From: Shigella phage sb1
Length of the DNA: 64,000 nt
Reading direction: 5' to 3' (one strand)
Sequence record: PQ666539
Shown here: piece by piece, positions 24,504-25,037 of the stretch
Numbering within the stretch: position 1 is the stretch's first letter
How the letters are laid out: the number at the start of each line of letters is the position of its first letter
Program-made: the position numbers and the translations under genes
The notes under the pieces: model-generated
What the model saw: only the letters and a program-made list of their open reading frames with translations
The model's database searches: none
What the model was told of the DNA's origin: nothing

Positions 24504-25037
24504 CTAAGTTGAAATAGGAGGTACACCTGGAATGTCTTCTAAATTGGCATTTTTACGGTAAACCATAATATATGCATACTTTTTATCATAATCCCAGATT
24601 TCTTTTAAAAGAACATATCGACCTGCTCCTTTAGTACGTACTAAAAGGTCAGCAATAACTTGTATCTGACGAGCAGCGCCATTTGTTTTACTTTTTAGTA
24701 CGCGGAATAGGCATGCGTCAATTTTATACTGTTTCATTGTTTGAAGAGCAGTATCAAAAACCGCATTAATGACACCAATTGGATTTCCACCCAAGTTTTT
24801 AAGTTTAACTAATGATAGTTTCTCATTGACAACTATCATTACGATATGCATCATTTTATCTCCTGGCTTAACGTTTTTATTTGTATCACCGCCAGAGGTG
24901 TATGTACAAAATCTAAATCCAGGAAGTACACTTTCTTCGCCGGCTTGAATAGCAAAAATTTGAGGTATTTTATGCTTAGGATTTAAGTTAACAACCGGCG
25001 CTGAAGCGCCGTCAAATAATTCTGTAATAAGTTCCAT
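24504..25037 (-). CDS. Alt-like paralog, N-terminal part (alt.-1-like)
   Basis: 177 aa ORF about 60% identical to Alt N-terminus (MELITELFD...). Confidence 0.6.
   Translation of the reverse strand: MELITELFDGASAPVVNLNPKHKIPQIFAIQAGEESVLPGFRFCTYTSGGDTNKNVKPGDKMMHIVMIVVNEKLSLVKLKNLGGNPIGVINAVFDTALQTMKQYKIDACLFRVLKSKTNGAARQIQVIADLLVRTKGAGRYVLLKEIWDYDKKYAYIMVYRKNANLEDIPGVPPIST

Follow-up and report, generated by a model that had tools for sequence, protein, structure and literature searches.

Directly downstream of alt, on the minus strand of the 64-kb stretch of DNA that was analyzed here as a whole (the window), lies a second Alt-like frame, which is referred to below as the Alt paralog and has alt.-3 on its other side. 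The features of the locus are as follows.

25041 to 27098, minus strand: alt (Alt-like RNA polymerase ADP-ribosyltransferase), intact in the window, with PF03496 at E = 4.7e-34
22980 to 25037, minus strand: complete frame of the Alt paralog, 685 codons plus the terminal stop
24504 to 25037, minus strand: N-terminal fragment of the Alt paralog, 177 aa and then TAG, as translation would give
24504 to 24506, minus strand: TAG at codon 178 of the Alt paralog, plus-strand cta; the ancestral codon is GAG (Glu)
22980 to 24503, minus strand: C-terminal part of the Alt paralog, 507 codons without a start codon of its own
22629 to 22919, minus strand: alt.-3 ortholog, which has a private premature stop of its own (TCA>TAA, 22641 to 22643, codon 93/96)

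The window belongs to a T4-like phage (Tequatrovirus) and is about 96 to 97% identical to its nearest deposited relatives, which are Ec_YwIITB1, the Shigella phages sb2, sb4, KNP5, and pSs-1, ime09, and IsaacDaniel. Its last base falls within 1 to 2 nt of the end of deposited linear pSs-1-like records, so that it seems to be the last 64 kb of a record of ~165 kb. The longest alt ORF of the window begins MMELITE... and measures 685 aa from the first ATG (27095 to 27098, minus strand). The Alt proteins of relatives align from the second ATG, at 27095 (684 aa), which places the true alt start probably one codon later.

The original prediction, that a second Alt-like frame directly downstream of alt is broken by an in-frame TAG after ...PGVPPIST, describes the locus correctly. 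The protein reads ...PGVPPIST*LFTKVESKVGDV around the stop, and the nonsense codon at position 178 is the sole break in the frame, which is otherwise continuous, including the stretch ...GDTNKNVKPGDKMMHIV.... The stop arises from a single-base G>T change on the coding strand (GAG>TAG), seen on the plus strand as C>A at 24506. The 177 aa that precede it are 66% identical (118/178) to the N terminus of the Alt of the window; the resemblance that had been put at about 60% is thus real and slightly closer than estimated.

No Pfam domain was detected in the 177-aa N-terminal fragment. The ADP-ribosyltransferase domain ADPrib_exo_Tox (PF03496, E = 6.9e-20) lies in the part that follows the TAG, at residues 238 to 443 of that part, whose translation contains the motifs LYR, VSTSL (STS), and SEAEV (E-A-E). 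The corresponding motifs of the Alt of the window are LYR, STS, and E-M-E. That the C-terminal part has no ATG near its beginning, as had been noted, was borne out: no in-frame ATG occurs until 93 codons beyond the TAG. The first GTG, at codon 28 (24422), is not preceded by an obvious Shine-Dalgarno sequence.

The same codon was inspected in 12 relatives (IsaacDaniel, ime09, YwIITB1, sb2, sb4, KNP5, MI-02, a48, T6, T2, and two IMG/VR contigs) and was GAG in 12/12. The Alt paralog is an uninterrupted ORF of 2,058 nt in IsaacDaniel, ime09, YwIITB1, sb2, KNP5, MI-02, a48, T6, and T2, and the 685-codon frame was intact in all 10 relatives from which the full frame was extracted; the exception among the relatives is the error-laden sb4. 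Compared with the Ec_YwIITB1 ortholog, the paralog of the window shows 98.2% amino acid identity over 685 residues, with one stop. Orthologs are annotated as "alt.-2," "Alt-like RNA polymerase ADP-ribosyltransferase," or "NAD(+)--arginine ADP-ribosyltransferase."

The TAG allele was also sought outside this group. A 55-nt probe carrying GAG matched 292 phage records exactly among 50,697, and the same probe carrying TAG had no exact match in the 50,697; the best match of a 31-nt TAG probe to the phage records was 30/31. Look-ups of the 177-aa fragment, Alt, and gp54 as exact proteins returned no record. Exact-pattern scans of the IMG/VR and JGI metagenomes likewise returned no match to the TAG allele. 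The occurrence of the same TAG in reference relatives had been named as the observation that would mark the split as natural pseudogenization rather than a new lesion, and it was absent both from the 12 relatives and from the phage records. The lesion is therefore a private single-base GAG>TAG change common to no relative, in line with the second of the two origins originally proposed, that of another nonsense lesion.

When the proteins of relatives were aligned to the window, 28 internal in-frame stops, the TAG among them, turned out to interrupt genes that these relatives carry intact. The first bases of these stops are as follows, where (-) marks the minus strand.

Positions: 5097, 5367, 6672, 14130, 15196(-), 16664, 17689, 18130, 18952, 20739
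Continued: 22641(-), 24504(-), 30391(-), 34742(-), 38072(-), 38251(-), 38437(-), 39293(-), 39446(-)
Continued: 43452(-), 43455(-), 48265(-), 51772, 51841, 52702, 54211, 55164, 56285

The genes that bear them are gp22 (two stops), gp23, uvsW.1, uvsY, a hub-assembly gene, gp27 (two), gp29, gp48, alt.-3, the Alt paralog, two small ORFs, an Rz-like spanin gene, an alc-like gene (two), rnlA (two), nrdA (two, adjacent), gp32, gp34 (four), gp35, and gp36. All but one (27/28) result from G:C>T:A changes, the exception being a TTA>TAA change in gp23. The set comprises 22 TAA, 3 TAG, and 3 TGA codons, and the type of stop follows the ancestral codon, GAG giving TAG, GAA giving TAA, and GGA giving TGA; TAA replaces E, S, Y, and L, TGA replaces G, and TAG replaces E. 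The remark that TAG departs from the dominant TAA/TGA pattern is hence true but trivial, since the ancestral codon sets the stop type. In nrdA (43452 to 43457, minus strand), two adjacent Glu codons, GAAGAA, read TAATAA, owing to two G>T changes 3 nt apart. The last sense codon of rnlA (38717 to 38722, minus strand), TAC at position 374, has become TAA by a C>A change of the same mutation class, so that the protein ends one residue early.

Plaque formation is impossible for a phage whose genes for the major capsid protein, scaffold, baseplate hub, tail-tube cap, single-stranded DNA-binding protein, and tail fibers carry stop codons. Suppression could not rescue such a genome, because the stops are of all three types and four different residues are replaced by TAA alone. 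This bears on the possibility that the TAG of the Alt paralog is decoded, either by programmed read-through or suppression (through a suppressor tRNA or codon reassignment), giving a full-length paralog, or through re-initiation, giving a separate C-terminal enzyme. In favor of decoding, the frame stays open and conserved for 507 codons past the TAG, with its catalytic motifs intact, but this open frame is simply the remainder of one very recent base change. The TAG is conserved in none of the 12 relatives inspected, the three stop types and the range of residues exchanged for TAA are incompatible with a recoding rule, and no tRNA gene lies within the 64-kb window. Re-initiation would have to make do with an ATG 93 codons on or with the GTG at codon 28, which lacks an evident ribosome-binding site. 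Decoding of the stop in any of these forms is hardly credible.

The stops form part of a much larger set of changes. Over the about 61 kb of the window that is covered by at least three relatives, about 285 window-private G:C>T:A events were counted, which amounts to about 1.3% of G:C sites. This overlay is present in every 4-kb bin, at 0.6 to 2.2% of G:C sites, and on both strands, between which it is symmetric. Its effect on coding sequence was assessed by comparing the window with five relatives in 44 gap-free genes (26,112 nt), where 285 private substitutions were found, 122 of them G:C>T:A; in the same genes, each of the five relatives has only 5 to 28 private G:C>T:A changes.

Within the 44 genes, the G:C>T:A changes fall on codon positions 1, 2, and 3 in the proportion 50/45/27 and comprise 9 synonymous, 95 missense, and 18 nonsense changes, where random placement predicts 10.8, 96.2, and 15.0 (chi-square P = 0.62). 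Each of the 18 nonsense changes in the set is G>T or C>A. The G:C>T:A class bears no mark of selection. The remaining 163 private changes are of another kind: 121 are synonymous and 42 missense, 124 occupy codon position 3, and they are mostly synonymous transitions at third positions, which look like natural divergence.

The spacing of the overlay is close to random, with 21 pairs of events within 10 nt against 13.1 expected (95% range, 7 to 20), a marginal excess. There are no runs of C>A or of G>T: 136 of the 284 pairs of neighboring events agree in type, where 141.5 would be expected. No trinucleotide context preference is evident among the 16 contexts, which range from 0.35 to 1.9% with small counts; CCG is affected at 3/254 sites (1.2%), compared with the mean of 1.3%. 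Neither indels nor frameshifts were seen, and the proteins of relatives align to the window in one piece.

The Alt paralog follows this pattern, with 22 private changes, of which 8 are G:C>T:A. Six of the 8 are G>T changes at codon positions 1 or 2 and give G69V, R131L, E178*, D433Y, V473F, and S562I.

These data allow the TAG to be weighed as a genuine recent amber mutation, natural or acquired in the laboratory, in a dispensable paralog of a viable phage and unrelated to the other lesions. Such a mutation would leave a 177-aa N-terminal fragment without ADP-ribosyltransferase, and it would be tolerated, given that T4 has independently lost most of its own paralog; the clean single-base change in an otherwise well-conserved frame is also what a genuine amber would look like. 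However, it belongs to a G>T class that is about 8-fold over-represented and unselected in the window, and the paralog bears five further private G>T missense changes. Relatives show no nonsense change among 941 private changes in the same genes, and the allele occurs in no other phage or metagenome record searched. A genuine amber is accordingly unlikely, and the idea of natural pseudogenization, which had been raised for this frame, has against it that the lesion stands among 28 internal stops and about 285 G:C>T:A changes that are unselected.

The overlay could also be real as a whole, having arisen in a burst of G:C>T:A mutagenesis in vivo (through oxidative damage, a MutM/MutY-deficient host, or a mutator replisome) and been sequenced as a nonviable or complemented population. 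Unrepaired 8-oxoguanine classically leads to G:C>T:A (PMC3616734), and the rest of the sequence is that of a normal, distinct Tequatrovirus, both of which would suit such a burst. Selection is, however, wholly absent, and a single 64-kb haplotype holds 28 stops. If one molecule had been damaged, runs of same-strand changes would be expected, which the counts of neighboring events given above do not show, and an accumulation over several generations would have been purged by selection. We consider a burst of this kind very improbable, and still less credence is given to the statement that the overlay, TAG included, records a population of T4-like DNA hypermutated in vivo, whether by oxidative lethal mutagenesis or by a context-free G:C-to-T:A process of the host or phage. 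A biological overlay would be an unusual instance of transversion hypermutation without context preference in a phage, a possibility against which the evidence speaks.

Because it places stops in many essential genes, the overlay is not a property of a viable genome. Since such a genome is not viable, the overlay and the TAG within it are most likely errors that arose after the DNA had left the phage. We infer a technical cause, the private status of the changes, their spectrum, the absence of selection, and the lesions in essential genes having been observed directly. Candidates for this cause are damage of the oxidized-guanine type or base-calling errors that became fixed in a low-depth or poorly polished assembly; alternatively, the record may have suffered some other nonbiological corruption. 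The presence of the errors in the consensus would in any case call for very low depth, bad polishing, or other corruption.

Oxidation of guanine during library shearing has been described as a source of C>A/G>T artifacts, with a preference for CCG>CAG and a low allele fraction (Costello et al. 2013; PMC3616734). The overlay resembles this artifact in being of the same class, nonbiological, and blind to selection: the excess is confined to C>A/G>T and occurs on both assembly strands. It differs in that the window shows no context preference, CCG>CAG included, and in that the changes stand in the final consensus. A shearing-type 8-oxoguanine artifact is thus only one possible technical cause, whose class fits and whose CCG context does not. 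Nanopore-type errors on glucosyl-hydroxymethylcytosine were considered as well and are not supported, since frameshifts are absent and the changes do not depend on k-mer context. The idea that a single molecule was damaged was likewise rejected, as none of the same-strand-type runs that it would give were seen.

Other records of this clade have defects of their own. In Shigella phage sb4 (PQ666542.1, 103956 to 151968), many essential genes are annotated in pieces (alt in three, the paralog in three, ligase in two, gp27 in two, rnlA in three, and others), and its private changes contain an excess of C>A plus G>T (145/545) together with an excess of A>T and T>A. This close relative shares with the window the split essential genes and the C>A/G>T excess; it differs in the added A>T/T>A excess, in having its lesions at other positions, and in carrying GAG at codon 178. 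The sb4 record appears to be another error-rich one. In Ec_YwIITB1 (PQ356294.1), gp23 and hoc are each annotated as two coding sequences, and over 48 kb its alignment with each of the other relatives has about 90 gap openings, roughly double what is usual, which suggests errors of the indel type.

The split of the Alt paralog is thus very probably spurious, and the real phage most likely encodes an intact paralog of 685 aa. The TAG most likely reflects noise in the sequence rather than a gene arrangement of biological origin: it would be one member of a random, unselected G:C>T:A overlay on a full-length gene. That the paralog has mostly been lost in T4 is a counterpoint, in that a genuine amber at codon 178 would be tolerated. 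On the preferred reading, that of a post-phage error, the product in the real phage would most likely be a capsid-packaged arginine ADP-ribosyltransferase of full length, and the TAG would imply no mechanism, be it read-through, re-initiation, or a split gene. The Alt paralog is a known, annotated kind of gene, and its split is very probably not a real feature. As a matter of data quality, split genes, amber codons, pseudogenes, and odd residues taken from the window are to be discounted.

The comparison with T4, T2, and T6 that had been proposed for the junction places the paralog among known systems. The split arrangement of T4 had been offered as the natural model for the interrupted frame, and this proposal has to be abandoned, as T4 has a different architecture, with a frameshift and a deletion, and both T2 and T6 have the gene whole, codon 178 being GAG. 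In T4, alt.-1 (NP_049810, 61 aa) and alt.-2 (NP_049809, 67 aa) are the product of a frameshift near codon 55, after which alt.-2 restarts at an internal ATG (MMHIV...). Homology of the T4 duplicate ends near codon 116, the remainder, including the catalytic domain, having been deleted, and the remnant measures 386 nt. The T4 pair and the paralog of the window occupy the same locus on the same strand, between alt and alt.-3, and stem from the same alt duplication, with nearly identical N termini (MELITELFDGASAPVV...). The T4 remnant is without an ADP-ribosyltransferase domain, whereas the paralog of the window keeps its 685 codons and PF03496.

T4 Alt is a mono-ADP-ribosyltransferase that is packaged in the capsid and injected. 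T4 Alt (NP_049811) belongs to the same domain family as the paralog of the window; the identity between them is about 42% over the whole length and 66% over the first 178 residues. T4 Alt is related to the second Alt-like gene as a paralog and not as an ortholog. The pair alt.-1/alt.-2 was noted earlier as a paralogous duplication of alt, and an apparent full-length alt duplication was reported in the T4-like phage 44RR (PMC1524935).

The closest counterparts are the full-length tandem paralogs of T2, T6, ime09, KNP5, and other Tequatroviruses, which agree with the copy in the window in position (between alt and alt.-3) and in length (685 codons), are 97 to 98% identical to it in nucleotide sequence, and share PF03496 with the R, STS, and ExE motifs. 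The frame is unbroken in T2, T6, and ime09, whereas the copy in the window has TAG for GAG at codon 178 and five private G>T missense changes. It is already known from annotated genomes that most Tequatroviruses, T2 and T6 included, carry a second full-length Alt-like ADP-ribosyltransferase; of this second gene, T4 retains only a frameshifted stub.
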